Positions 1,254-30,928 of a DNA stretch of 64,000 bases are shown here, one piece after another; positions within the stretch are counted from its first letter, which is position 1, and each line of letters opens with the position of its first letter. Location of the stretch: the NCBI GenBank assembly GCA_964398365.1, contig CAYNMC010000037.1, positions 7,812-71,811 on the forward strand, read 5' to 3'. Position numbers and translations under genes: made by a program. The stretch is from an uncultured Pseudomonadales bacterium. GTDB taxonomy: Bacteria > Patescibacteriota > Microgenomatia > UBA1400 > CAYNMC01. The notes below the pieces were generated by a model that saw only the letters and a list, made by a program, of their open reading frames with translations, did not search any database and was not told where the DNA came from.

Positions 1254-1450
1254 GTTAAAGCGTGTTGCACAGTAGTACCAAGCACTCGGCTTTTTCTGCT
1301 TTTAAACGTTCTTCTCTAAGTCTTTGATAGCTTACGAAATTAGCCGTTATTAAATTTGTAGCAAAATCGCAGACTAAAAGCAATATAAAAAGCGATGAAA
1401 ATAAAAACAAAGGAGGTACTTTTTAATCAAAGTGCGGGATTTCCTGGCGG

Positions 1451-1521
1451 AGCGGGATACCGGAGTCGAACCGGCATCTCCACCTTGGAAGGGTGGCATA
1501 CTGCCATTGTACGAATCCCGC
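1451..1521 (-). tRNA. tRNA-Gly (anticodon TCC)
   Basis: Manual cloverleaf: acceptor GCGGGAT/ATCCCGC, anticodon loop CTTCCAA, T-loop TTCGACT. It lies 1 nt downstream of tRNA-Pro. Confidence 0.9.
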
Positions 1522-1522
1522 G

Positions 1523-1594
1523 TCGGGGAGACAGGAGTCGCACCTGCCGCCTCTCGGTCCCAAACCGAGCGTTCTACTGATGAACTACTCCCCG
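1523..1594 (-). tRNA. tRNA-Pro (anticodon TGG)
   Basis: Acceptor CGGGGAG/CTCCCCG, D-stem GTTC/GAAC, anticodon loop TTTGGGA. The T-loop TGCGACT is slightly atypical. Confidence 0.85.
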
Positions 1595-1606
1595 TCTTTC
1601 TTGAAG

Positions 1607-1692
1607 TGGGCAAGGAGGGAGTTGAACCCTCACTGGGTGTTACCCCAACGGGATTTTAAGTCCCGCGCGTCTGCCAATTCCGCCACTTGCCC
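1607..1692 (-). tRNA. tRNA-Leu (anticodon TAA)
   Basis: Acceptor GGGCAAG/CTTGCCC, anticodon loop CTTAAAA, a long variable arm and T-loop TTCAACT. Confidence 0.9.
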
Positions 1693-1719
1693 GTCTTTTA
1701 AAATTTTAGCAGATTTTTG

Positions 1720-1801
1720 TGCCCTGGGAGAGATTTGAACTCTCACGTCTTGCGACACACGCTCCTGAAGCGTGCCTGTCTGCCAGTTCCAGCACCAGGG
1801 C
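1720..1801 (-). tRNA. tRNA-Leu (anticodon CAG)
   Basis: Acceptor GCCCTGG/CCAGGGC, anticodon loop TTCAGGA, a long variable arm and T-loop TTCAAAT. A TATAGT box lies about 14 nt upstream. Confidence 0.9.
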
Positions 1802-1831: not shown

Positions 1832-3190
1832 TTAATGGTAGTTTTGAAGTTTTTGGGGAATGATCGTTCGCAGTTTATTTAGACTGCCAAGGTTAGGAGC
1901 AAAATAAAAAAGTGACAGGATTTTGACTTCAAGCATATCTGGATTGGCAAAAATCACCCCGCTTTTGGTTTTTGGCGAATAAAGGTAATCTTTTAAACCT
2001 GATTTGAGATTCGGATAAGTAAACTTTTTGTTTTTGGGCAAGTTTATATCCTCGCTTAAAACAAAAAAGGAACGCAGATAATTTTTACCCAGAAGATTTT
2101 GAGCAGTTTCATGAACGTGAGTGCCGCCGGTACGGCGCAGATTTGTTTCCACCGCATAAACTTGACCGTTTTTAGCGATCACCAAATCCATATCAAAAAA
2201 CCCACGATAGCCTAAATTTGCCAATGCCTCACCGTAAAAAATACCGGCTTTTAAGGCGATTTTAATCAGGGGATGTTGGTTTAATTGGGGGTAAATAAAA
2301 CACCCCTTAAAAGTTTTGCGGTCTTTTTCCAAAAGTTGTTCACAGGCATAAGTTGGCTGCACAGTTTTTTCTTGGCTAATAAAAAACTCCACGCTCGGCG
2401 AGCCGCCCAAAATTTTTTCATTTTGCTCAATAAATTCCTCAACCACCAGCGGCGTTGTTTGCCAAAATTTATCTGTCAGTTGAGTTTTTAAATAATTGAA
2501 AAAAGCTGTTTTATTTTTCGGAACTTGACTGAGAAAAATCATCTTTACGCCCGTACCCTGAGTTCCCCAATTGTGTTTAATCACAAATGATTTGCCATGT
2601 TGCCTAAACCACCAACCGGCGGCCAAAGCCTCTTTTTGATCGCCAACAATAAAACCTTCGGGAATTTTAATTTTTAGCTGATGACCGGCCAGTGCCTGCG
2701 GCCATAAATGCCTGAAACCTCTTTTTGAGTTGTAATAGAGGTTGAGAAAAGTTTCTTGTGGTGCCACCGTTTCCGGCGTGGTAAAAGTTAACCCCTTTTT
2801 TCTTAGACTTTTTACCAACTGATAGAATTCTTCGGTGCTCCGATAAGGAATCAGAGCAATTTTGGGGTTATCTTTAAGGAGTTTAAGAAATTGCTGGTTT
2901 TTAGCCAGGTCGCGACAAAGAGACCAGGACGGCGATTGAGGAAAAAGGTTAAAAACGTTTCGCCATTTCATCAATTGGCAAATTTCCTTTTGATGTGTCT
3001 CTAAAATTGGCCATGAGGTGGCCACCACTTTATCATCAGCGTCATAAAACAAGGTCCGATTAGCCTCAAGCCAGTCGTGCTTAAGCCAATAATCTTTCTG
3101 TCTTTGAGGCATTTTTTCATAAACCTGATAATAAGTTTCCAAAATATTACCGATGAAGACTGCTTTAATTTTCCCCATTTTCATGACCAT
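1832..3190 (-). CDS. ATP-grasp family ligase (possibly PGM1-like peptide ligase)
   Basis: ATP-grasp style motifs: FVIKHNWGTQGTGVKM, VVEEFIEQ and GFFDMDLVIAKNGQVYAVETNLRRTGGTH. The start is ambiguous (ATG at 3223, 3190, 3184 or 3178) and overlaps the end of the upstream gene. Confidence 0.55.
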   Translation of the reverse strand: MVMKMGKIKAVFIGNILETYYQVYEKMPQRQKDYWLKHDWLEANRTLFYDADDKVVATSWPILETHQKEICQLMKWRNVFNLFPQSPSWSLCRDLAKNQQFLKLLKDNPKIALIPYRSTEEFYQLVKSLRKKGLTFTTPETVAPQETFLNLYYNSKRGFRHLWPQALAGHQLKIKIPEGFIVGDQKEALAAGWWFRQHGKSFVIKHNWGTQGTGVKMIFLSQVPKNKTAFFNYLKTQLTDKFWQTTPLVVEEFIEQNEKILGGSPSVEFFISQEKTVQPTYACEQLLEKDRKTFKGCFIYPQLNQHPLIKIALKAGIFYGEALANLGYRGFFDMDLVIAKNGQVYAVETNLRRTGGTHVHETAQNLLGKNYLRSFFVLSEDINLPKNKKFTYPNLKSGLKDYLYSPKTKSGVIFANPDMLEVKILSLFYFAPNLGSLNKLRTIIPQKLQNYH

Positions 3191-4241
3191 TGGTAACTGG
3201 AAGGAGTTTTTTGCCGGCGGCATCCCTCACGGTGTTTAAAAGTAGGCGTTTAAGAATATCAAGAAAAGAAAGACCATAAAGATCTAAAATGTAAGCCAAA
3301 GCGCAATCAGTTTCTTTGGGTCCAAAAGCAGGATTCATATTGCAATCCAAAAAAAAGTAACGCCCTGAAGAATCCAAGCGGACGTCAAACTTTGCGTAGT
3401 CAGCCATTTTGGTAATTTCAAATGCCCGCTTAACGTATTCATTCAAAAGCGGATCGCGATATTTTTGGTAGTGAAAAACTTCGTTTGCCCTTTTTAACCA
3501 CTGATCTTCAAAAGTTGAAAAAATATACTTCTCGCCGCTTTTATGAAAAACTTTTTCAGCCAAATAAACCTTTTTATTCAAGCCCTCCAAAAGAATCGCC
3601 GTAATTTCCCGTCCAACAATAAATTCTTCCACAATAACCGGTTGTTCATAAGTTTTAATCAAAAAATTTAAGCGTTGCCGCAGATGTTTTTCACTTTCCG
3701 AAACCGCATTTTGGGTAATCTCCACCGCGCCATGGATTTCATTAAGTTTGGAAATTAAGGGAAATCTTAAGGTAGGATCCAAGGGATCGTTTGGATTATT
3801 GAACATTTGATAATTGGGAACAGGCACGCCATTTTGTTGCAAGAGTTTTTTGATGAGAAATTTATTGGTGTCCAAAGCTTTGCCCAAAATACCCGCACCG
3901 GTATAAGGAATTTCCAAAAGTTCCAAAGTGGCAGGAATGGTTGCCGAAAGATATTCATTACCTTTTACCGAGTCAACTAAATTTAAAACCACTTCCGGAC
4001 GATCTTGACGCAGTTCTTGAGTTAAGCGGGCATTACCTGGATAAAGTTTGGTTTTAACACCTAATTTTTCTAAATAGTGGCTAATGATCATTGCGTCACG
4101 ATCGGCATCTTTTTCGGTAAGATATTGGGCTTCGGTGGGAAAATATTCGCGTTTAACTTCACTGTAAATAATGCCTGCCTTTTTAGGCAAATTGAATTCA
4201 TTCTTCCTTGGAGGAGGTTTTTCGTTTTTGTCTTCTTCCAT
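3165..4241 (-). CDS. D-alanine--D-alanine ligase-like ATP-grasp protein (non-canonical Ddl family)
   Basis: 358 aa with LNLVDSVKGNEYL...IPYTGAG...DTNKFLIKKLLQQNGVPVP...VIVEEFIVGREIT...DVRLDSSGRYFFLDCNMNP. Confidence 0.6.
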   Translation of the reverse strand: MEEDKNEKPPPRKNEFNLPKKAGIIYSEVKREYFPTEAQYLTEKDADRDAMIISHYLEKLGVKTKLYPGNARLTQELRQDRPEVVLNLVDSVKGNEYLSATIPATLELLEIPYTGAGILGKALDTNKFLIKKLLQQNGVPVPNYQMFNNPNDPLDPTLRFPLISKLNEIHGAVEITQNAVSESEKHLRQRLNFLIKTYEQPVIVEEFIVGREITAILLEGLNKKVYLAEKVFHKSGEKYIFSTFEDQWLKRANEVFHYQKYRDPLLNEYVKRAFEITKMADYAKFDVRLDSSGRYFFLDCNMNPAFGPKETDCALAYILDLYGLSFLDILKRLLLNTVRDAAGKKLLPVTNGHENGEN

Positions 4242-4316: not shown

Positions 4317-5159
4317 ATGATTTGGTTTTTAAACGGCCGTTATCTTCCCGCCCAAAAAGCGAAAATTCCCATAAACGATCTTGCCGTTTTACGGGGTTTT
4401 GGAGTTTTTGATTTTTTGGTAACCTATAATTACCAACCCTTTTTGCTAACTGAGCATTTAAGGCGTTTATATCGTTCTGCTCGTTTGCTTCAACTAAAAA
4501 TTCCCTACTCGCAAAACCAGCTGAAGAATTTTATTGCCCAAGCTATCAAAAAAAATCATTGGCCAAGCTTGACTTTGCGGATTGTGGTTACCGGTGGTAT
4601 TTCCCAAAGCAACATCTTTCCTGAAGGCAAAACGAGTGTGGCGGTGCTGGCAGAAAAGCGGATTCCCTACCCCAAAACATGTTATAAAAAGGGGGTTAAG
4701 ATCAAAACTTATGAATATCAGCGTTTTTTGCCCGAAGCCAAACACCTTGATTATCTTGCGGCGGTGGTGACCAAAAGCAAGGCTGTCAAAAAAGGATTTT
4801 TAGAAGTTCTCTATACTTGGCAGGGGAAAATTTTAGAGTGTACCACTTCAAATTTCTATCTGGTTAAAAATAAGGTTCTCGTAACTCCTCAGACTGATAT
4901 TCTTCAGGGGATTACCAAAAAAGTGATTTTGAGTTTGGCAAAAAAGATGATGAAAGTTGAGGAACGACCGGTTTTGGTGAACGAATTAAAAACGGCAGAC
5001 GAGGCATTAATCTCCGCTTCAGATAAAGAAATTATGCCCGTGGTTCAGATTAATAATTTAAAAGTAAATGGGGGGAAACCGGGGCCTTATACGCGAAAGC
5101 TGATGGCAGCCTTTCATGTTTATACTCAAAACTTTAGTCAAAGAGTGTCCCCGGAGTGA
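4317..5159 (+). CDS. class IV (branched-chain / D-amino-acid) aminotransferase
   Basis: 280 aa with NDLAVLRGFGVFDF...EHLRRLYRSA and a fold-type IV PLP pattern. The last 14 nt overlap tRNA-Arg on the opposite strand. Confidence 0.75.
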   Translation: MIWFLNGRYLPAQKAKIPINDLAVLRGFGVFDFLVTYNYQPFLLTEHLRRLYRSARLLQLKIPYSQNQLKNFIAQAIKKNHWPSLTLRIVVTGGISQSNIFPEGKTSVAVLAEKRIPYPKTCYKKGVKIKTYEYQRFLPEAKHLDYLAAVVTKSKAVKKGFLEVLYTWQGKILECTTSNFYLVKNKVLVTPQTDILQGITKKVILSLAKKMMKVEERPVLVNELKTADEALISASDKEIMPVVQINNLKVNGGKPGPYTRKLMAAFHVYTQNFSQRVSPE

Positions 5160-5219
5160 TTTGAACACTCGACCTACTGCTTAGAAGGCAGTCGCTCTAT
5201 CCAACTGAGCTACGGGGAC
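5146..5219 (-). tRNA. tRNA-Arg (anticodon TCT)
   Basis: Acceptor GTCCCCG/CGGGGAC, anticodon loop CTTCTAA and T-loop TTCAAAT. Confidence 0.9.
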
Positions 5220-5237
5220 AAAATTGGCTTCAAAATT

Positions 5238-5246
5238 ATTATACCA
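5238..5246 (-). promoter_or_regulatory. extended -10 box TGGTATAAT upstream of tRNA-Arg(TCT)
   Basis: The minus strand reads ggaagTGGTATAATaattttgaagccaatttt and then the tRNA 5' end. Confidence 0.45.
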
Positions 5247-5251
5247 CTTCC

Positions 5252-6643
5252 TCAGGCTAAAATTGAACGGTTTTGTTTTTTGAAAAAGGCCAATTCTTCA
5301 CTAAAGATTTTAAGCAAGGGTTGCTTTAATTCGTAAGTTAAAGTCTGTGGCGGATGAACACTAAAAAAATTTTCCAGCAGTTCCTGTTTTCTTTTTTGAG
5401 CCTCTTTTAAATAACGACGCTCGAATTCTTTCATGAGACTGCCTTTAACTCCCCTTTTATAAGCCAAGTAAAAAGCTAAAAGTTGTTCGTCGCGGCCGAC
5501 GCCTGAAGCATCATAACTACCACTTTCGTCGGTTTTTGCTCCAAATAAACTAAAAAGCTCTTTTTTTCTTTGCTGAAGCATATTTTGGGTAAAACCGACG
5601 CGACGCGGATCAATGCCTAAAGCCTTCATAAAAATATAGATGCGGGCACACTTAGAACAAACCGCACACCAACGCCGGGTCTTTGAGGGAACTTCATCAA
5701 AAAAACAGGAAGCTTGATATTTGCCGATATGAGGATAACGGTGATGAAGAATCTGCATAATGGCAATTTCATGCAAGGGTTCTACCAAGGAGGCAAAAAT
5801 ACTGTTACAACCCAAAACTTTCATGGCAGCGTTAGTGCTTAACAACCACTGATGATTTTGTTCAAAAACAGGATTAATAAAATAACCTTCTTTATTGGTA
5901 AAAATTTGGTTGCAGCTTTGTTCATGGGACCAAAAAAGGTATTTGGCGCGATGGGCAAAAAGATAAGGTATTAAAAGCAAGGTATATTGAGTAAGTAAAA
6001 GATCCCAACCCCACCAAGGACCGCTTTCATCAGTTTCGCGAAGCCAACCGCTATTAACAGGAAAAAAAGTCACCTCTTCTTTAAAATTCCTAAAAAAACG
6101 TTCGCTTAAAATTTTTTTATAGCGATTTTCATATGGTGAGCGCGGTTCTCTAAAAAAAATGAGTATCGGTTTAATCCCAAGTTCAAGACTTAAAGCAAAG
6201 GAAAGAAGGCTGTCTTTACCAAAAGTGAAGGGAATTAAACTTTTACGATGGTTGTGATGGTTAATGTTTTTAAAGTGTTCATAACGCGGCCGACGCGTGA
6301 AGCTGATACCCTGATTGGCATTAAAAAAGAGCTGAAGATATTTGGTTGCTGAACCATCAAAAATTGCATCTTCGACTAAACTATAAAGTGTACCCTTAAA
6401 AAGCAAGGGTTCCAAAATCGGCGGCGGAAAATGATAAACCAGTTTTTGATATTGAAAATCTTTGAAAGAAAGATGAAGAGTAAAGCTATAAGTGACGGCA
6501 TCAGCAAAAGTTTGATGGTAAACAACAGGAAACCTTTTCCAAACTTTCACAGGATAATTAATTTCATACCTTCTTTTGTTAAAAGCGATGATCAACCCCT
6601 GAGGTGAAAGATAACGGCGGATATGCAAAACATGATTTTTCAT
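5252..6643 (-). CDS. uncharacterised protein with a degenerate PP-loop (FTFGKDS) and a CxxCxKC motif
   Basis: 463 aa. SLIPFTFGKDSLLSFALSLELG resembles the SGGxDS ATP-pyrophosphatase loop, and RRWCAVCSKCARIY is a Cys cluster. The gene lies 29 nt downstream of elp3 on the same strand. Confidence 0.4.
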   Translation of the reverse strand: MKNHVLHIRRYLSPQGLIIAFNKRRYEINYPVKVWKRFPVVYHQTFADAVTYSFTLHLSFKDFQYQKLVYHFPPPILEPLLFKGTLYSLVEDAIFDGSATKYLQLFFNANQGISFTRRPRYEHFKNINHHNHRKSLIPFTFGKDSLLSFALSLELGIKPILIFFREPRSPYENRYKKILSERFFRNFKEEVTFFPVNSGWLRETDESGPWWGWDLLLTQYTLLLIPYLFAHRAKYLFWSHEQSCNQIFTNKEGYFINPVFEQNHQWLLSTNAAMKVLGCNSIFASLVEPLHEIAIMQILHHRYPHIGKYQASCFFDEVPSKTRRWCAVCSKCARIYIFMKALGIDPRRVGFTQNMLQQRKKELFSLFGAKTDESGSYDASGVGRDEQLLAFYLAYKRGVKGSLMKEFERRYLKEAQKRKQELLENFFSVHPPQTLTYELKQPLLKIFSEELAFFKKQNRSILA

Positions 6644-6672
6644 TTTAGTTTTTAATCTTGAAATAATTTTTA

Positions 6673-8232
6673 TTAAATGTCAACCCTTTTTACCATATAA
6701 GTATCTCTTAACTGATAAGCCAATTGCCGATAATAATTTCTGGTACCGACAGCGGCAATCACTGCCAATTTTTTAAAACCTTTTTGAGCGGCAATTTTTT
6801 CCGCAATACTGATTAACTTTTTCCCTAAACCTTGGTGTTGGATATCCTTTTCCTTTTTACTGATAGCTAAAGCTTGACCAAAAGTATGGACTTCGCGGAT
6901 GATGGCTCGTTGACCGACTAGTCGCAACCGGAGTAAGGCATAAAGCCGATTTTGTTCATCAACATACTGCAAAAAGTACTCTTCTCCCCCACTCGCTTGA
7001 TATTGGCTAATTTTTAATTTTAAGCTTTCCCTTTGAATTTTTAATTTTGAATTTTTAATTTCTCGACAACGGATACATTGACACGCTGTTTTTAAAACCT
7101 GTCTGATATTGGAAATTTTGGTGCCGGCGGCAATATTGGCTACCGGAATGTCGCGACCTAAACGGTTAATTCTTACCCACTCCGGCACGATTTTTTTAAT
7201 TTTGCTCAGTAAACTGATTAATTCTTCATCAGGGTAAGGTTTAAACTTACCTTGTTGGTACCAGCGATAAAGTTCGCTTTGATAGGTAACCACACAGGGA
7301 TAAATTTTAATCATGTCTGGTTTAAAGCGGCTGTCGGTAAAAATGGTTTTAAACATAGCTAAATCTTTTTCAGGATTACTGCCGGGAAGATTAGGCATAA
7401 GATGGTAGCAGATTTTAAAACCGGCATCTTTTAATAATTTGGTGGCTTTAATCGTGGCGGAGACCTTATGACCGCGTTTGATTTTTTTCAAAACATCATC
7501 ATAGATTGACTGAACTCCCAGTTCCACTCGCGTACAGCCTAATTTCCTCATGAGCTTAATTTCCTTTTCATTAATATAGTCAGGTCTCGTTTCTAGGGTG
7601 ATGCCGACAATGCGATACTTAGCCAGTTCATTTCGTCTTTGTTCACTTCTTAAATTTTTGAATTTTAATTTTTCATTTTGATCTTTAATTTTTACTTTTT
7701 GATTTTTAGGGTTTTGGTTGCAAGTAGCGAAGCACTGAGTAATAAACTCAATTTTGTAGTCCCGCGGCAGAACAGACCAGGTTCCGCCCATGACAATAAG
7801 TTCCACTTTTTCGGGTTGATGACCAATGGCTTCATATTGTTTAAGCCGGTAGCGGACTTGGGCGTAAGCATCAAAATTTAAGGCCTGAGCGCGGAGGACC
7901 GCCGGTTCATCACCAAGATAACTTTTGGGCAGATTTTTTTGGTCGGGACAATAAATGCACCTTCCCGGACAGGGATAAGGTTTGGTTAAGACTGCCACCG
8001 GTGAAACACCGGACAAAGTTCTTATTTTTTTTAAACGTAATAAATCTTCAAAAACTTTGTTGGGTTTTAATTTTTTTTTCTTAAGAAGTTCTTGATAAAC
8101 CCTGAAGAGATCAGAATTCCGCAAGAGGGGTTGCCGGCTGGTTTTAGCCCACGAACGCTTTAAGGCCATTAACTTGGCAGCATTAAAGTCAGCCTCTTTA
8201 ATAAAATCAAGAAGCAAGTTTGCTAAGTTCAT
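6673..8232 (-). CDS. elp3: Elp3-type radical SAM / GNAT enzyme (tRNA U34 carboxymethylation family)
   Basis: 519 aa. It has the radical-SAM motif PCPGRCIYCP (Cx4Cx2C), the core GITLETRPDYI...RVELGVQS, and a C-terminal GNAT motif QHQGLGKKLI. Confidence 0.8.
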   Translation of the reverse strand: MNLANLLLDFIKEADFNAAKLMALKRSWAKTSRQPLLRNSDLFRVYQELLKKKKLKPNKVFEDLLRLKKIRTLSGVSPVAVLTKPYPCPGRCIYCPDQKNLPKSYLGDEPAVLRAQALNFDAYAQVRYRLKQYEAIGHQPEKVELIVMGGTWSVLPRDYKIEFITQCFATCNQNPKNQKVKIKDQNEKLKFKNLRSEQRRNELAKYRIVGITLETRPDYINEKEIKLMRKLGCTRVELGVQSIYDDVLKKIKRGHKVSATIKATKLLKDAGFKICYHLMPNLPGSNPEKDLAMFKTIFTDSRFKPDMIKIYPCVVTYQSELYRWYQQGKFKPYPDEELISLLSKIKKIVPEWVRINRLGRDIPVANIAAGTKISNIRQVLKTACQCIRCREIKNSKLKIQRESLKLKISQYQASGGEEYFLQYVDEQNRLYALLRLRLVGQRAIIREVHTFGQALAISKKEKDIQHQGLGKKLISIAEKIAAQKGFKKLAVIAAVGTRNYYRQLAYQLRDTYMVKRVDI

Positions 8233-8331
8233 AACTTATAAACCTTCTTGCCCTAACTCAAGGATGGTAGTTAGGCGATTTTGAGTATAATAGTCTTGGG
8301 AGAAACTCATCTTTTAATTATACCTGATTTT

Positions 8332-8949
8332 ATGTCTCGAGTCGCTAAAATTTATGATCAAATCAGCCGTGATTATGCCTTAAAACGCCACCGGCCTGAT
8401 GAAAAAATGAAACTGGGAGCCAAATATCTTTATCCAGGTATGCGGATTTTAGATCTGGGTTGCGGTCCTGGCCGATTTTATGAATTGATGCCGGCGGCTT
8501 GTCAATATATCGGTTTGGATTTTTCTAGAGGTTTACTTGCCATTGCCCGCCGCGATTATCCTCAGGCAAGCTTTGTTTACGGTGATATGAGTGATGAAAA
8601 AGTTTGGCGCAAATTAGGCCAATTTGATGCCATTTTCAGTTTTGCTTCGTTCCATCATCTTTTGAACCAATTGGTTCAAATAAAAACCTTAAAGCTTTGT
8701 TATCAACACCTCAAAGATAAGGGTTTATTGATGATTGTAGTCTGGAATTTACTCAATGATAAGAAAAAAAGAATCATCAAGCCTTGGAAACTTTCAGATG
8801 GCCAAAAAGTTATCAAAACCTTTTACCGCTCTTATTACGCTTTTACTCCGGAAGAATTAAGAAATTTAACCCTGAAAAGTGGCTTTCAGGTTAAAAAAAT
8901 TTTTTTTCTTAATCATCAAAAAGAATTAGCCTTAATTGCCCAGCGTTAA
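8332..8949 (+). CDS. class I SAM-dependent methyltransferase, Trm9/ALKBH8-like
   Basis: Motif I is ILDLGCGPGRF. The N-terminal VAKIYDQISRDYALKRHRP, then IIKPW, and the C-terminal FYRSYYAFTPEEL resemble Trm9 signatures recalled from memory. The ATG at 8332 is preferred over the TTG at 8281 given in the track. Confidence 0.55.
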   Translation: MSRVAKIYDQISRDYALKRHRPDEKMKLGAKYLYPGMRILDLGCGPGRFYELMPAACQYIGLDFSRGLLAIARRDYPQASFVYGDMSDEKVWRKLGQFDAIFSFASFHHLLNQLVQIKTLKLCYQHLKDKGLLMIVVWNLLNDKKKRIIKPWKLSDGQKVIKTFYRSYYAFTPEELRNLTLKSGFQVKKIFFLNHQKELALIAQR

Positions 8950-9325: not shown

Positions 9326-9398
9326 GGTGATCGTAGCTCAATGGTAGAGCGCTAGCCTGTGGAGCTAGAAGTTGCGGGTTCGACTCCCGTCGATCACC
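9326..9398 (+). tRNA. tRNA-His (anticodon GTG) with an encoded G-1
   Basis: The extra 5' G at 9326 pairs with C73. The anticodon loop is CTGTGGA and the T-loop is TTCGACT. A T-run follows. Confidence 0.9.
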
Positions 9399-9414
9399 CT
9401 CTTTTTTAAGCCAA

Positions 9415-10737
9415 TTAACGCTTAAAACTGTTTTTTCTGGCAAAAAAGAGACGGAAGATAATTTTAAAATTGGCGATAAAAATCAAAATCAGCATTGTCA
9501 AAATTATTTGCCTGCTGATAGCTCCTAAAGCCAAAATTAAAAGTCTTAAGTCCCGCCTGATATTAAGAAGTGGCCATTTTATTTTTTTTCTGGTGGCAAC
9601 TTTAATTTCCCGGGAGCTAAAAATATCAAGTAGACTGGCAGCCACGGCAAAAAACCCAAGAATTAAAGCAAGCGGTTCCTGTTTAAGCTTCCAGTAACCA
9701 TAAACCATACCAAAAATAAGGATAATTTCTACATAGCGGTCAAGCACCGTATCAAAAAAAGCGCCCCAGCGGCTTTGTTGAAATTTAAGTCTGGCAATTT
9801 CACCGTCGCAACCATCTAAAATTGAAAGGAACTGAATTGCCAAACCGCCAAATAAAAGCCAAGGATAAGTTCCCTTGAATAAAAACCAGCAAACTGAAAG
9901 GCTTAAAATTAAAGTGACAAGGCTGACAAAATTTGGACTGATGGGGGTTTTTACTAATAATTTAGTGATAAAAGCCGAAATTTTTCGATTTAATTTTTGG
10001 GAAATAACGCCATCTTGGGGCTTTGTAAGACTCTGCAGCAGTTTTTTCTCGGCAAACTTAAAGTCTTCATAGGTATCGCAGTCAGCCCAAAAGTTTTCAC
10101 CAATATCAAAGGCTTTAAGTTTATTTTCCTTAACAAGAATCCTCATGGCATCGCTTAATGAATATTTATTTTTTCTGGTGGCTTTAATAAGGGCCTTAAA
10201 AAGAAAAGGAGAGCAGATAAACATGCCGGTGTCAAAACCATTGTATGGCGAAATCTTCTTCCCAAGAGAAATAACTCGGCCGGCCTTGACAAAAACTTTG
10301 GTGGCTTCCTGAGGATTTTCCATGGTTTTGATTTTTTTATCAACCGCCAGTACTGATTCGTGGGTTTTAAGCGGTACTTGCTGGAGACGTTTGAGAGTGT
10401 CTGGGGCAAAAAGATGGTCAGCCATCAAAAGTACAAAAGTTTTTTTAAAAAATTCTTTGGCCTTTAGCACCGAGACACCATTACCTTTTCGCCAATTTTT
10501 ATTTTCTAGATAAGTAAGGGAAACTCCATATTTTTTACCGTCCTTTAATAAAGCTTTAATTTGGTTGCCTTGGTAACCGATAACGATGACAAAACTACGA
10601 ATGCCCGCTTCTTTAGCAGCTAAAATAATCCGTTCAATAATTGTTAAACCCAATAAAGAAAGCAAACATTTGGGTTTTCCTTGAGCATATTTTTGGATTC
10701 TGGTGCCGTCGCCGGCCGCAATAATCAGGGCTTTCAT
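9415..10737 (-). CDS. bifunctional sugar/alcohol-phosphate nucleotidyltransferase and CDP-alcohol phosphatidyltransferase (IPCT/DIPPS-like fusion)
   Basis: The N-terminus MKALIIAAGDGTRI is an NTP-transferase signature. The C-terminal membrane domain has DGEIARLKFQQSRWGAFFDTVLD, which fits DGx2ARx8Gx3Dx3D exactly. Confidence 0.75.
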   Translation of the reverse strand: MKALIIAAGDGTRIQKYAQGKPKCLLSLLGLTIIERIILAAKEAGIRSFVIVIGYQGNQIKALLKDGKKYGVSLTYLENKNWRKGNGVSVLKAKEFFKKTFVLLMADHLFAPDTLKRLQQVPLKTHESVLAVDKKIKTMENPQEATKVFVKAGRVISLGKKISPYNGFDTGMFICSPFLFKALIKATRKNKYSLSDAMRILVKENKLKAFDIGENFWADCDTYEDFKFAEKKLLQSLTKPQDGVISQKLNRKISAFITKLLVKTPISPNFVSLVTLILSLSVCWFLFKGTYPWLLFGGLAIQFLSILDGCDGEIARLKFQQSRWGAFFDTVLDRYVEIILIFGMVYGYWKLKQEPLALILGFFAVAASLLDIFSSREIKVATRKKIKWPLLNIRRDLRLLILALGAISRQIILTMLILIFIANFKIIFRLFFARKNSFKR

Positions 10738-15398: not shown

Positions 15399-15782
15399 AT
15401 GAAATTAGTAATTGATAAAAAACTCCAGCAGCAGATTAAAGAAATTGTCGTGAGGAGCCGGCTGTCGCATATTGATCCCCGAAGGATTATTTGTTTTCGC
15501 AGCTTTGAAGCTAAATCCCGGGCCTATGCCCGCATTTGGGCTTTGCCCCGCATTTGGCAAATAGCCTTAAATCTTAAAGCCCATTACTGCCTTGAAGTTT
15601 TAAGTGAGCATTTTTCTCGTCTTTCAACCAGCGAACAAGTAAAGGTTTTAATTCATGAACTTCTTCACATTCCGAAAAATTTTTCTGGGGCGCTCTTGCC
15701 TCACCGTCGTCGGCAGAAAGGGGGAATTAACCAACAACACATCGAAAAAATTTTTAAACGCTATCAAGAGGCATGCTGTTGA
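15399..15782 (+). CDS. predicted small metallopeptidase (HExxH)
   Basis: 127 aa with ARIWALPRIWQIAL...VLIHELLHIPKNFSG, resembling the archaeal-type predicted metallopeptidase family. Confidence 0.55.
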   Translation: MKLVIDKKLQQQIKEIVVRSRLSHIDPRRIICFRSFEAKSRAYARIWALPRIWQIALNLKAHYCLEVLSEHFSRLSTSEQVKVLIHELLHIPKNFSGALLPHRRRQKGGINQQHIEKIFKRYQEACC

Positions 15783-30307: not shown

Positions 30308-30928
30308 TTAAAAATACTTTCTAATTACTCCCCTAACCTTGCCTTGAATGGTAACGTTGGTAGCAAAAATAGGTGCCATTTTTGAATTAGCCGGTTCAAG
30401 TCTCACCCGCGTTTCTTCTTTAAAAAAACGCTTTAAAGTGGCCAAGCCGTTATCAAGAAGAGCCACCACAATGTCGCCGTTTTGAATTTCCGGATTTTCC
30501 TCAATCACCACGTAATCACCGTCCAAAATGCCTTCCTCAATTAGACTATCTCCCTTAACCTGTAAAACATATGAACGTCTTCCTTCAGTTAAAAAATTGG
30601 GAGCCACCTGAAGAGTAACGCCTGCTTGAGGATAGGGATCAATTGGTTGACCGGCAGCAATATAACCCAAAACCGGCAAATCAACAGCCCCTCTCCAAGA
30701 AGCATAATTTTTATGAAGGAGCCGGATATTTTTCACTCCCCCTCGCTGATTCTTCTTTAAAATTCCCTTGGCAACCAATTTTTGAATATGCTCGTGAACG
30801 GTCGCCAAAGAAGAAAGACCCACGGCATCGGCTACCTCCCGCAAGGTTGGTGCATAACCATTTTTTTGGATAAATTGGGTAATAAAATCAAGAATTACCC
30901 GCTGGCGTTTATAAAGAGTTACTGGCAT
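30308..30928 (-). CDS. lexA: LexA repressor (S24 peptidase)
   Basis: An N-terminal winged HTH (GYAPTLREVADAVGLSS), the cleavage-site region GYIAAGQP, and the Ser/Lys domain VKGDSLIEEGILDGDYVVI...LKRF. Confidence 0.85.
   Translation of the reverse strand: MPVTLYKRQRVILDFITQFIQKNGYAPTLREVADAVGLSSLATVHEHIQKLVAKGILKKNQRGGVKNIRLLHKNYASWRGAVDLPVLGYIAAGQPIDPYPQAGVTLQVAPNFLTEGRRSYVLQVKGDSLIEEGILDGDYVVIEENPEIQNGDIVVALLDNGLATLKRFFKEETRVRLEPANSKMAPIFATNVTIQGKVRGVIRKYF

Follow-up and report, generated by a model that had tools for sequence, protein, structure and literature searches.

A divergent elp3 and trm9-like gene pair as a candidate tRNA U34 modification module in bacteria

To our knowledge, textbook and review accounts place mcm5U, Elongator and Trm9 in eukaryotes and a few archaea, and assign the modification of U34 in bacteria to MnmEG. 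Trm112 is obligatory for eukaryotic Trm9. Eight residues of ScTrm9 are essential by mutagenesis (R29, D72, H116, W145, W168, R241, Y243 and N271); the D72A, H116A and W145A mutants are inactive, and R241A and Y243A are impaired (PMC4678810). Among archaea, Trm9 has been reported only in Sulfolobales and Halobacteriales (PMC5372719), and it is Trm112-dependent there (PMC5372719; PMC6144793). The elp3 and trm9 genes are clustered in Sulfolobus solfataricus (PMC2584109), and Haloferax Trm9 makes mcm5U (PMC6144793). Bacterial Elp3 has been termed rare in the Elp3 literature (PMC6367351). Formation of cm5U34 has been demonstrated for M. infernus Elp3, and tRNA-triggered hydrolysis of acetyl-CoA for DmcElp3 of Dehalococcoides mccartyi (PMC6367351; PMC5372719). 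A three-Cys Zn motif is conserved across the bacterial and archaeal enzymes (PMC6367351). No mention of a partner methyltransferase for DmcElp3 was found in the literature, and a literature search returned nothing on bacterial Trm9 or on Elp3 in CPR bacteria.

The window, which is the whole 64-kb stretch of DNA that was analysed and probably comes from a CPR bacterium, contains an elp3 gene divergent from a gene for a Trm9-like methyltransferase (Table 1), and both ORFs are located where the first-pass annotation had put them. The two genes probably (at an estimated 70% or so) form a two-step Elongator-type U34 module, in which Elp3 would make cm5U34 and the methyltransferase would convert it to mcm5U34. 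The first-pass annotation had proposed such a module, and the proposal withstood all computational tests run on the sequences. Conservation of the pair over many uncultured bacteria suggests that a tRNA modification pathway in the style of eukaryotes exists in bacteria, of which no description was found.

Table 1. Location of the two genes, the intervening spacer and the predicted functional residues in the window
Feature	Position	Strand	Description and basis
elp3	6673..8232	-	Predicted radical-SAM and GNAT/KAT tRNA U34 carboxymethyl (cm5U) synthase, 519 aa
Acetyl-CoA-binding GNAT motif QHQGLGKK	6817..6840	-	Elp3 aa 465-472, within the Acetyltransf_1 match
CQCIRC cysteine motif, Elp3 central linker	7066..7083	-	aa 384-389; Zn-binding site of bacterial/archaeal Elp3
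Radical-SAM [4Fe-4S] motif CPGRCIYC (Cx3Cx2C)	7948..7971	-	Elp3 aa 88-95; from sequence
Divergent intergenic spacer, 99 bp	8233..8331	.	Presumed shared promoter region; from sequence
Trm9-like class I SAM-dependent methyltransferase, 205 aa	8332..8949	+	Predicted tRNA cm5U34 carboxyl O-methyltransferase (to mcm5U)
R19 = ScTrm9 R29 (positions carboxylate)	8386..8388	+	Profile alignment of 'satR' to 'ANTR'; invariant in profile A1; 42/42 relatives
D63 = ScTrm9 D72 (SAM binding)	8518..8520	+	hhalign; 42/42
H108-H109 = ScTrm9 H115-H116 (catalytic, orients carboxylate)	8653..8658	+	hhalign; 38/42 and 41/42
W138 = ScTrm9 W145 (proposed to stack on U34)	8743..8745	+	hhalign; 41/42
W152 = ScTrm9 W168	8785..8787	+	hhalign of 'KPW' to 'VPW'; 14/42, indel-rich region
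R166-S167-Y168 = ScTrm9 R241-Y242-Y243	8827..8835	+	hhalign; R 41/42; at Y243, Y 15/42 and F 5/42

Identity of the two proteins

ORF 6673..8232 is, by its sequence, a full-length Elp3. The full Elp3 architecture claimed for it earlier is borne out. In NCBIfam it matches TIGR01211 (ELP3) over model positions 36-522 of 522 with 544.9 bits, where the curated cutoff is 350. The Pfam domains are Radical_SAM (PF04055), Radical_SAM_C (PF16199) and Acetyltransf_1 (PF00583), the last of which is the GNAT/KAT match (aa 416-502, with 22.1 bits where the cutoff is 20.7). In a PDB search the most similar solved structure is M. infernus Elp3 (6iaz, E 1.4e-118), and D. mccartyi Elp3 (5l7j) matches with E 3e-112. 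The protein begins with a basic extension of about 65 aa, and K/R make up 17 of its first 70 residues. The cluster motif CPGRCIYC, which aligns to that of M. infernus Elp3 with a one-residue gap, has the canonical radical-SAM spacing and not the Cx4Cx2C given in the first-pass annotation. The description of bacterial Elp3 as sporadic also needs revision, since Elp3 appears from these sequences to be common in Patescibacteria: dozens of proteins at 50-68% identity are among the matches listed, and the organisms named there are all Patescibacteria, a CPR division or 'uncultured bacterium'.

The mechanical ORF of the methyltransferase starts at TTG 8281, and the public gene call and the homologues use ATG 8332. 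With this ATG as the start, the divergent spacer is exactly 99 bp, the length originally stated. The protein has the motifs KRHR (aa 18-21), LDLGCGPG (40-47), IIKPW (148-152) and FYRSYYAF (164-171), and all of the motifs quoted for it at first, including LDLGCGPG and IIKPW, are present. Its relatives are labeled merely 'class I SAM-dependent methyltransferase' at NCBI. Matches to Pfam and NCBIfam are generic or sub-threshold only, and the best NCBIfam models, CpaM, Tam, BioC and UbiE, are all far under their cutoffs (37.2 bits against 185 for BioC and 32.1 against 216 for UbiE, with UbiG at 27.9 against 103). These two collections are not decisive on a Trm9 identity because neither appears to contain a Trm9-specific model.

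A single-sequence phmmer search of the PDB has TylM1-type sugar N-methyltransferases as its top matches, and Trm9 is merely 17th (E 6e-4), after sugar N,N-dimethyltransferases. Profiles and structure were therefore used, and the Trm9 signal is visible only with these. The close-subfamily profile A2 puts Trm9 (5cm2_Z) first in the PDB, with E 8e-14 and 55 bits. For the 39-sequence family profile A1, Trm9 is the best single domain, with 91.3 bits over profile positions 24-220, and the next full-length match has 72 bits. Alignment of the methyltransferase to Trm9 with hhalign covers 154 columns at 98.6% probability (E 1.1e-15). The AF2 model (pLDDT 96.6, pTM 0.92) also has Trm9 5cm2_Z at rank 1 in a Foldseek search of the PDB (E 3.8e-16, TM 0.75/0.83 with TMt 0.83, rmsd 3.5 A), followed by a second-ranked structure with E 7.6e-15 and TMt 0.60. 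The lead of Trm9 over other class I methyltransferases for this predicted fold is thus about 20-fold in E-value, which is modest and not overwhelming. The first-pass annotation had named a grouping with UbiE/UbiG or other small-molecule methyltransferases as a result that would speak against Trm9. The methyltransferase does not group with UbiE/UbiG: their models score 28-32 bits, and Trm9 is the best solved relative by the subfamily profile, by the family profile as a single domain, by hhalign and by fold.

Seven of the eight essential ScTrm9 residues are found in the window methyltransferase by profile alignment and hhalign. Their conservation was counted by automated alignment in 42 Elp3-adjacent relatives, where the equivalents of R29, D72, H116, W145 and R241 are kept in 41-42 of the 42, and those of W168 and Y243 are variable. 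The profile and hhalign alignments stop short of the position of N271, which is in the C-terminal hairpin of ScTrm9. N194 of the methyltransferase is in a loop between the last two predicted strands, and its column is not conserved in the relatives.

Conservation and surroundings of the pair

Scanning a genome collection with the single Elp3 protein gave 12 loci, which is too few for statistics. A metagenome scan with the methyltransferase alignment as its seed therefore took its place, and the pairing was counted over those family loci whose upstream DNA extends for 1.7 kb or more (n=30). Elp3 adjoins the family methyltransferase in 28 of these 30 loci, and is divergent in 28/28, against 0/38 with Elp3 among the generic methyltransferase loci of the same scan. 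Conservation of the pair in relatives, a point on which the first-pass reading had turned, therefore holds, and it covers two phyla, as the pair occurs in Patescibacteria and Anaerolineae, including a named Anaerolineae MAG and a named Paceibacterota MAG. The adjacency is not an artefact of one clonal lineage, because the Elp3 scores over the pair loci span 380 to 600 bits. When Elp3 was taken as the seed for bacterial loci, the family methyltransferase lay next to it in 4/7 and 4.6 kb away in a fifth. It is absent within 10 kb of nine archaeal Elp3 loci (Bathyarchaeia, Nitrosopumilus and others), and the family members at L003, L044, L050 and L100 are without a nearby Elp3.

The divergent spacers in relatives are 24, 35, 76, 94 and 133 bp, and one further locus has a 2-bp overlap. 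Elp3 and the methyltransferase are among the tightest conceivable divergent pairs. In the window, a TATAAT box lies about 40 nt upstream of the methyltransferase ATG; a promoter in the spacer is presumed and not seen directly, because a consensus scan of the 99 bp gave no full sigma-70 match. The conserved adjacency is a functional link, not proof of chemistry.

All-against-all ORF clustering around 38 pair loci yielded no third conserved gene, just Elp3 and the methyltransferase, and the remaining ORF clusters are antisense ORFs inside one or the other. A gene of 463 aa that lies 29 bp downstream of Elp3 was considered as a possible PP-loop thiolase, and was rejected as part of the module, having no Pfam or PDB relatives and being absent at all other pair loci. 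The Trm112-like partner that the first-pass annotation had wanted sought did not turn up: no conserved small ORF accompanies the pair in the 38 loci, no Trm112-like ORF was picked up by a crude motif test among the intergenic small ORFs of the window or in the bacterial loci, and none of ten extended members of the methyltransferase family has a Trm112 fusion. Elp1, Elp2, Elp4-6 and Kti proteins were likewise not found near the pair. MnmE, MnmG and MnmA were not found among the ORFs of at least 150 aa that were scanned, all but a few, a result for the 64-kb window and not for the whole genome.

The window encodes ten tRNAs, of which seven have U34, the same numbers as first reported. This share is nominally unusual, with a binomial P of 0.011 for a U34 frequency of 30% among tRNAs and 0.055 for one of 40%, but the tRNA genes are clustered and hence non-independent. 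The grouping of U34 tRNAs near elp3, flagged from the start as a possible coincidence, was rejected as part of the module for the same reason, and because it is not seen in relatives. The related loci have U34 in just 8 of 44 tRNAs, and the tRNA that recurs beside the methyltransferase there is His-GUG or Arg-CCG.

Proposed pathway and alternative readings

The first step is proposed because Elp3 belongs to a family with biochemically characterised archaeal and bacterial members. The stand-alone Elp3 would bind tRNA, aided by its basic N-terminal extension, and acetyl-CoA would be hydrolysed in the GNAT/KAT domain. The acetyl methyl group would be activated by a 5'-deoxyadenosyl radical from the radical-SAM [4Fe-4S] domain, and the product would be a carboxymethyl at C5 of U34 (cm5U). 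The second step is proposed because of the profile, fold, catalytic-residue and gene-context evidence. Here the 205-aa Trm9-like methyltransferase would transfer a methyl group from SAM to the carboxylate of cm5U, and the resulting ester would be mcm5U34. In line with the proposals for yeast Trm9, the carboxylate would be held in position by R19 and H108/H109, the uracil would be stacked on by W138, and contacts to the side chain would come from R166/Y168. Since they share the 99-bp spacer, the two genes may be co-regulated from divergent promoters, and the divergent arrangement is kept in many Patescibacteria and in Anaerolineae.

A broader reading is tentative and somewhat doubtful. It is that in Patescibacteria and some Chloroflexota a stand-alone, Trm112-independent Trm9-type enzyme would act with Elp3 to form mcm5U34, as a widespread bacterial pathway (about 2,300 protein clusters at 50% identity). 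Such a pathway might replace MnmEG in reduced genomes, and might be ancestral and not a recent transfer.

The methyltransferase may be linked to Elp3 and yet carry out a different reaction, acting on another anticodon-loop position, on another side chain made by Elp3 (such as an ncm5-type or a different xm5-type intermediate) or on Elp3 itself. This is the alternative that survives best, and it appears unlikely. It is consistent with the conserved adjacency, which gives a functional link without the chemistry, with the unaligned N271 equivalent and the variation at the W168 and Y243 equivalents, and with the searches for Trm112 beside the pair, elsewhere in the window and as a fusion, which found none. 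However, the residues proposed to hold the cm5U carboxylate and the uracil (equivalents of R29, H115/H116, W145 and R241) are kept in 38-42 of the 42 Elp3-adjacent relatives, and no PDB entry matches better than Trm9 by structure or by profile.

It is very unlikely that the methyltransferase lies beside Elp3 by chance and has an unrelated small-molecule or housekeeping role, like enzymes of the UbiE, UbiG, BioC or TylM1 type. The generic Pfam matches, an NCBIfam list headed by CpaM, Tam, BioC and UbiE far under their cutoffs, and the lead of TylM1-type sugar N-methyltransferases in the single-sequence PDB search would fit such an enzyme. Profiles and structure, however, rank Trm9 above every small-molecule methyltransferase, and chance placement does not agree with a divergent Elp3 in 28/30 family loci against 0/38 generic ones, nor with the occurrence of the pair in two phyla. 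No more probable is a counterpart of the Gram-positive MnmL(YtqA)/MnmM(YtqB) mnm5s2U system in place of an Elongator-type one: a radical-SAM enzyme and a class I methyltransferase work together in both, and TIGR01212 (MnmL/YtqA) is the second-best NCBIfam match of the radical-SAM protein at 89.6 bits, but this reaches half of the cutoff (180) and is confined to aa 201-382, whereas TIGR01211 reaches 545 bits at full length, including a GNAT domain that is absent from MnmL, and no MnmM-type family is among the Pfam and NCBIfam matches of the methyltransferase.

In Patescibacteria, a large and conserved Trm9-like family thus goes together with Elp3. Several questions become directly testable, namely the final U34 modification in Elp3-carrying bacteria, Trm9 chemistry without Trm112, and the evolution of the Elongator pathway. 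The family also provides a small, probably stand-alone Trm9 homologue for structural biology, and a basis to rename thousands of 'class I SAM-dependent methyltransferase' entries.

Comparison with known systems

The eukaryotic pathway to mcm5U34 consists of Elongator and Trm9-Trm112 or ALKBH8-TRMT112, and the same two catalytic activities are predicted for the window pair. The window Elp3 has the radical-SAM, KAT and linker domains, and the methyltransferase has equivalents of R29, D72, H115/H116, W145, W168, R241 and Y243. Unlike the eukaryotic genes, those in the window are a divergent bacterial pair, with none of Elp1, Elp2, Elp4-6, Kti or Trm112 found nearby. Compared with YlTrm9, the window methyltransferase is shorter (205 aa) and about 21-25% identical.

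The MnmE-MnmG pathway to (c)mnm5U34, with MnmC or MnmM/MnmL, has the same target, C5 of U34, and the same role in decoding NNA/NNG codons. Its enzymes are unrelated, and the chemistry is a GTPase/FAD/folate-dependent aminomethylation, whereas the Elp3 route is a radical-SAM/acetyl-CoA carboxymethylation. None of the genes of this pathway, including MnmC and MnmM/MnmL, is among the window ORFs checked.

DmcElp3, also bacterial and stand-alone, agrees with the window Elp3 in its domain architecture and in the Zn-binding cysteines of the linker. It is without the basic N-terminal extension (PMC6367351), and its alignment begins at query residue 68. That extension is common to the window Elp3 and M. 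infernus Elp3. In the archaeal systems with Elp3 and Trm9 (Haloferax HVO_1032 with Trm112, and the S. solfataricus cluster), Elp3 is likewise without other Elongator subunits. The window differs from these in that its host is bacterial.

Gene context of the Elp3-methyltransferase pair

Gene context is the strongest evidence linking the window's Elp3 with the Trm9-like methyltransferase. Metagenome contigs were scanned with the methyltransferase alignment, and each locus was scored for Elp3 and with an HMM of the family (homologues of the window's methyltransferase), with at least 150 bits taken as a family member and less than 150 bits as a generic methyltransferase. Because the scan pattern is a generic SAM motif only, unrelated methyltransferases were also returned, and these could be used as an internal control. 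The scan yielded 42 family loci, 30 of them with at least 1.7 kb of upstream DNA, and at 28 of these 30 Elp3 lies immediately upstream, always divergent; the Elp3 gene start is still visible at five of the 12 loci with short upstream sequence. Elp3 was found at none of the 38 generic loci from the same scan, 21 of which have room upstream. The divergent arrangement reported in the first-pass annotation is therefore kept in relatives, and the same counts argue against adjacency by coincidence, which is very improbable.

Seven bacterial Elp3 loci, excluding the window, were compared starting from Elp3. A family methyltransferase is adjacent and divergent at four (L004, L103, L104 and L106) and 4.6 kb away at L015, and none was found within 4-10 kb at L005 and L105. 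The pair is present in MAGs named Candidatus Paceibacterota and Anaerolineae bacterium (spacer 94 bp in the latter), and across pair loci the Elp3 scores to the window protein span about 380 to 600 bits, indicating that more than one clonal lineage is represented. When all ORFs at 38 pair loci were clustered, no third conserved gene emerged. At nine archaeal Elp3 loci (Bathyarchaeia, Nitrosopumilus and others) a family member is missing within 10 kb, which fits the narrow distribution reported for archaeal Trm9 (PMC5372719).

The methyltransferase family is large: when 1.84 billion cluster representatives were searched exhaustively by HMM, 2,348 proteins came out at E <= 1e-30. At L003, L044, L050 and L100 the family member has no Elp3 close by. 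The L100 member (5001..6700; GCA_030429505.1, 1.02-Mb contig) has 'RTYRR' replacing 'RYYH' and no Elp3 within 5 kb. A gene for a class V aminotransferase (cysteine desulfurase-like) begins where this one stops, the two overlapping at that point. This member may come from a diverged subfamily whose role differs, or have a tie to thiolation. In three family proteins (P0243, P0245 and P0267) the methyltransferase fold is interrupted midway, after motif I, by a DUF559 (Vsr-like endonuclease) domain, which looks like a mobile-domain insertion. In the 429-aa member P0260, a C-terminal GNAT acetyltransferase domain is fused to the Trm9-like methyltransferase.

Identity of the two proteins

The window Elp3 scores 544.9 bits on the NCBIfam model TIGR01211 'Elp3' (curated cutoff 350; model positions 36-522 of 522), and its nearest PDB relatives are the Elp3 proteins of Methanocaldococcus infernus (6iaz, E 1.4e-118) and D. 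mccartyi (5l7j, 3e-112), followed by eukaryotic Elp3. Together with the three domains and all expected motifs, this bears out the Elp3 identity and reading frame proposed earlier. The cluster motif had been described as Cx4Cx2C, but CPGRCIYC is the canonical Cx3Cx2C, as in the CPR Elp3 proteins of L001 and L015; in the archaeal M. infernus structure there is one residue more (Cx4Cx2C). The window protein has an N-terminal extension rich in lysine and arginine (17 within residues 1-70), unlike D. mccartyi Elp3 (DmcElp3), for which the alignment starts only at query residue 68. In archaeal Elp3 the N-terminal extension matters for tRNA binding (PMC6367351). The Elp3 of L001, a relative with 48% identity, is annotated as a radical-SAM ORF of 402 aa and a GNAT ORF of 116 aa; the gene could truly be split, or the division could come from a frameshift, a stop codon or an assembly error.

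The mechanical methyltransferase ORF opens at TTG 8281, but the public gene call and the homologues use the ATG at 8332, and with this start the divergent spacer is exactly 99 bp, as first described. Curated libraries cannot decide the likeness to Trm9: Pfam gives generic Methyltransf_23/25/11 and nothing more specific, and the NCBIfam scores for CpaM, Tam, BioC, UbiE and UbiG are all far under their cutoffs. A single-sequence PDB search is led by sugar N,N-dimethyltransferases, with Yarrowia lipolytica Trm9 (5cm2_Z) 17th at E 6e-4. The more sensitive profile, hhalign and fold tests all point to Trm9, in line with the initial proposal. A profile built from just the eight nearest homologues (48% identity or more) places 5cm2_Z first (8e-14, 55 bits), and hhalign of this alignment to the same chain gives 98.6% probability (E 1.1e-15, 154 columns). 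With a 39-sequence family profile, Trm9 has the top single-domain score (91.3 bits, profile positions 24-220) and the second-best full-length match has 72 bits; a nominally higher match, to a phosphoethanolamine methyltransferase, is the sum of two domains with 51 and 38 bits. The AlphaFold2 model (pLDDT 96.6, pTM 0.92) finds Trm9 as its best match among 350,542 PDB chains in Foldseek (E 3.8e-16, TM 0.75/0.83, rmsd 3.5 A), ahead of a second place at E 7.6e-15 and target-normalised TM 0.60. This predicted-fold lead is modest, as is to be expected for class I methyltransferases, and its direction matches the other tests.

Mutagenesis of yeast Trm9 (ScTrm9) showed that R29, D72, H116, W145, W168, R241, Y243 and N271 are required and that H115 contributes (PMC4678810). 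The patches KRHRP, IIKPW and YRSYY, earlier described as Trm9-like, coincide with those bearing the equivalents of these residues. Among 42 other Elp3-adjacent family members in an automated alignment, the R29 and D72 equivalents are present in all, those of H116, W145 and R241 in 41 each, and that of H115 in 38. The W168 equivalent is seen in 14, in a stretch with many indels over which the automated alignment cannot be relied on, and the Y243 position has Y in 15 and F in 5. N271 falls outside the aligned region; by model position alone, window N194 lies in the corresponding hairpin loop.

Features of the window and related loci
Feature	Position	Strand	Description
elp3	6673..8232	-	519 aa; Radical_SAM, Radical_SAM_C, GNAT
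CPGRCIYC	Elp3 aa 88-95; 7948..7971	-	radical-SAM cluster motif
CQCIRC	Elp3 aa 384-389	-	linker cysteines
QHQGLGKK	Elp3 aa 465-472	-	acetyl-CoA motif
Trm9-like methyltransferase	8332..8949	+	205 aa
R19, D63			align with ScTrm9 R29, D72
H108, H109			align with ScTrm9 H115, H116
W138, W152			align with ScTrm9 W145, W168
R166, Y168			align with ScTrm9 R241, Y243
tRNA-His(GUG)	9327..9399	+	after methyltransferase
tRNA-His(GUG), two closest relatives	L001 2398..2473; L002 3809..3883		after methyltransferase
tRNA-Arg(CCG), eleven CPR loci	L018, L019, L021, L026, L029-L033, L035, L015		after methyltransferase
Four tRNA genes	1449..1801	-	Gly-UCC, Pro-UGG, Leu-UAA, Leu-CAG; 353 bp
Two-ORF Elp3	L001 44..1650	-	
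Ddl-like ATP-grasp ligase	3165..4241		
Class IV aminotransferase	4317..5159		D-amino-acid type
463-aa ORF	5252..6643	-	29 bp downstream of Elp3
IPCT/DIPP-like fusion	9415..10737	-	
PhageMetallopep-domain ORF	15399..15782	+	small
LexA-type repressor	30308..30928	-	

Host lineage, tRNAs and other genes

The window has a GC content of 38% and no rRNA. Where organism names are given on the listed Elp3 homologues, they are Patescibacteria, CPR division or 'uncultured bacterium'. Judged by these names, Elp3 is ordinary in Patescibacteria/CPR, not sporadic as first supposed, and so ordinary for the window's lineage, since the host is probably of this group. Prediction confirmed ten tRNAs, seven with U34, but the clustering of U34 tRNAs is not recurrent (8 of 44 tRNAs at related loci). 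At many loci a tRNA gene lies directly 3' of the methyltransferase, a linkage that is probably positional because neither His-GUG nor Arg-CCG has U34. In the four-tRNA cluster the Gly and Pro genes abut with zero spacer (1521/1522), implying processing from one precursor.

The 463-aa ORF may be co-transcribed with Elp3, given their close spacing on one strand. Neither Pfam nor PDB gave a relative for this ORF; one stretch weakly resembles MurL (UDP-MurNAc-L-Ala-L-Glu epimerase; 22.7 bits), and the ORF has no counterpart at the other Elp3-methyltransferase loci. Its aminotransferase and Ddl-like neighbours suggest that the region may be a peptidoglycan D-amino-acid cluster. In another gene a nucleotidyltransferase is fused to a CDP-alcohol phosphatidyltransferase, similar to the bifunctional IPCT/DIPP synthase of archaea and thermophiles that serves in making di-myo-inositol-phosphate. 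The fusion matches NF041135 from end to end with 252 bits, under the model's cutoff of 580, and is unusual in a CPR-like genome. The PhageMetallopep-domain ORF is flanked by RuvC-like and DNA polymerase III delta-like genes, and the LexA-type repressor lies farther along. The rest of the window includes genes for glycolysis, PFOR, pyrimidine biosynthesis, GatA/GatB and ClpB.

Proposed pathway and known systems

The pair probably constitutes a two-step U34 pathway, a reading to which we give a probability of about 0.7. Judged by family membership, Elp3 would make cm5U34 by radical-SAM/acetyl-CoA chemistry, a route established for archaeal Elp3, as is tRNA-triggered acetyl-CoA hydrolysis for DmcElp3 (PMC6367351, PMC5372719). 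The Trm9-like enzyme would then methyl-esterify cm5U to mcm5U, as its profile, fold, residues and context suggest. The main rival keeps the link to Elp3 and assigns the methyltransferase some other methylation, which appears unlikely; an MnmL/MnmM-type system has only a slight chance of being correct. None of MnmE, MnmG and MnmA is among the ORFs scanned in the 64-kb window, about a tenth at most of a genome of ~1 Mb. No Trm112 turned up either, whether as a neighbour of the pair, as one of the small ORFs in the window or as a fusion in extended family members.

A review reports no detectable homologue of Trm112-dependent methyltransferases in bacteria (PMC5372719), Elp3 papers (PMC6367351 among these) mention no partner methyltransferase, and a literature search for bacterial Trm9 found nothing. 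Some family members are already labelled 'TRM9' by JGI automatic annotation; the NCBI label is generic methyltransferase. The Elp3-Trm9 pathway itself is known in eukaryotes and Haloferax (PMC6144793), and an elp3-trm9 gene cluster was noted earlier in Sulfolobus (PMC2584109). Since bacterial Trm9 was not found in the literature, the pair appears to be a new, bacterial branch of the Elp3-Trm9 module, and if active without Trm112 this branch would count as a real variant of it.
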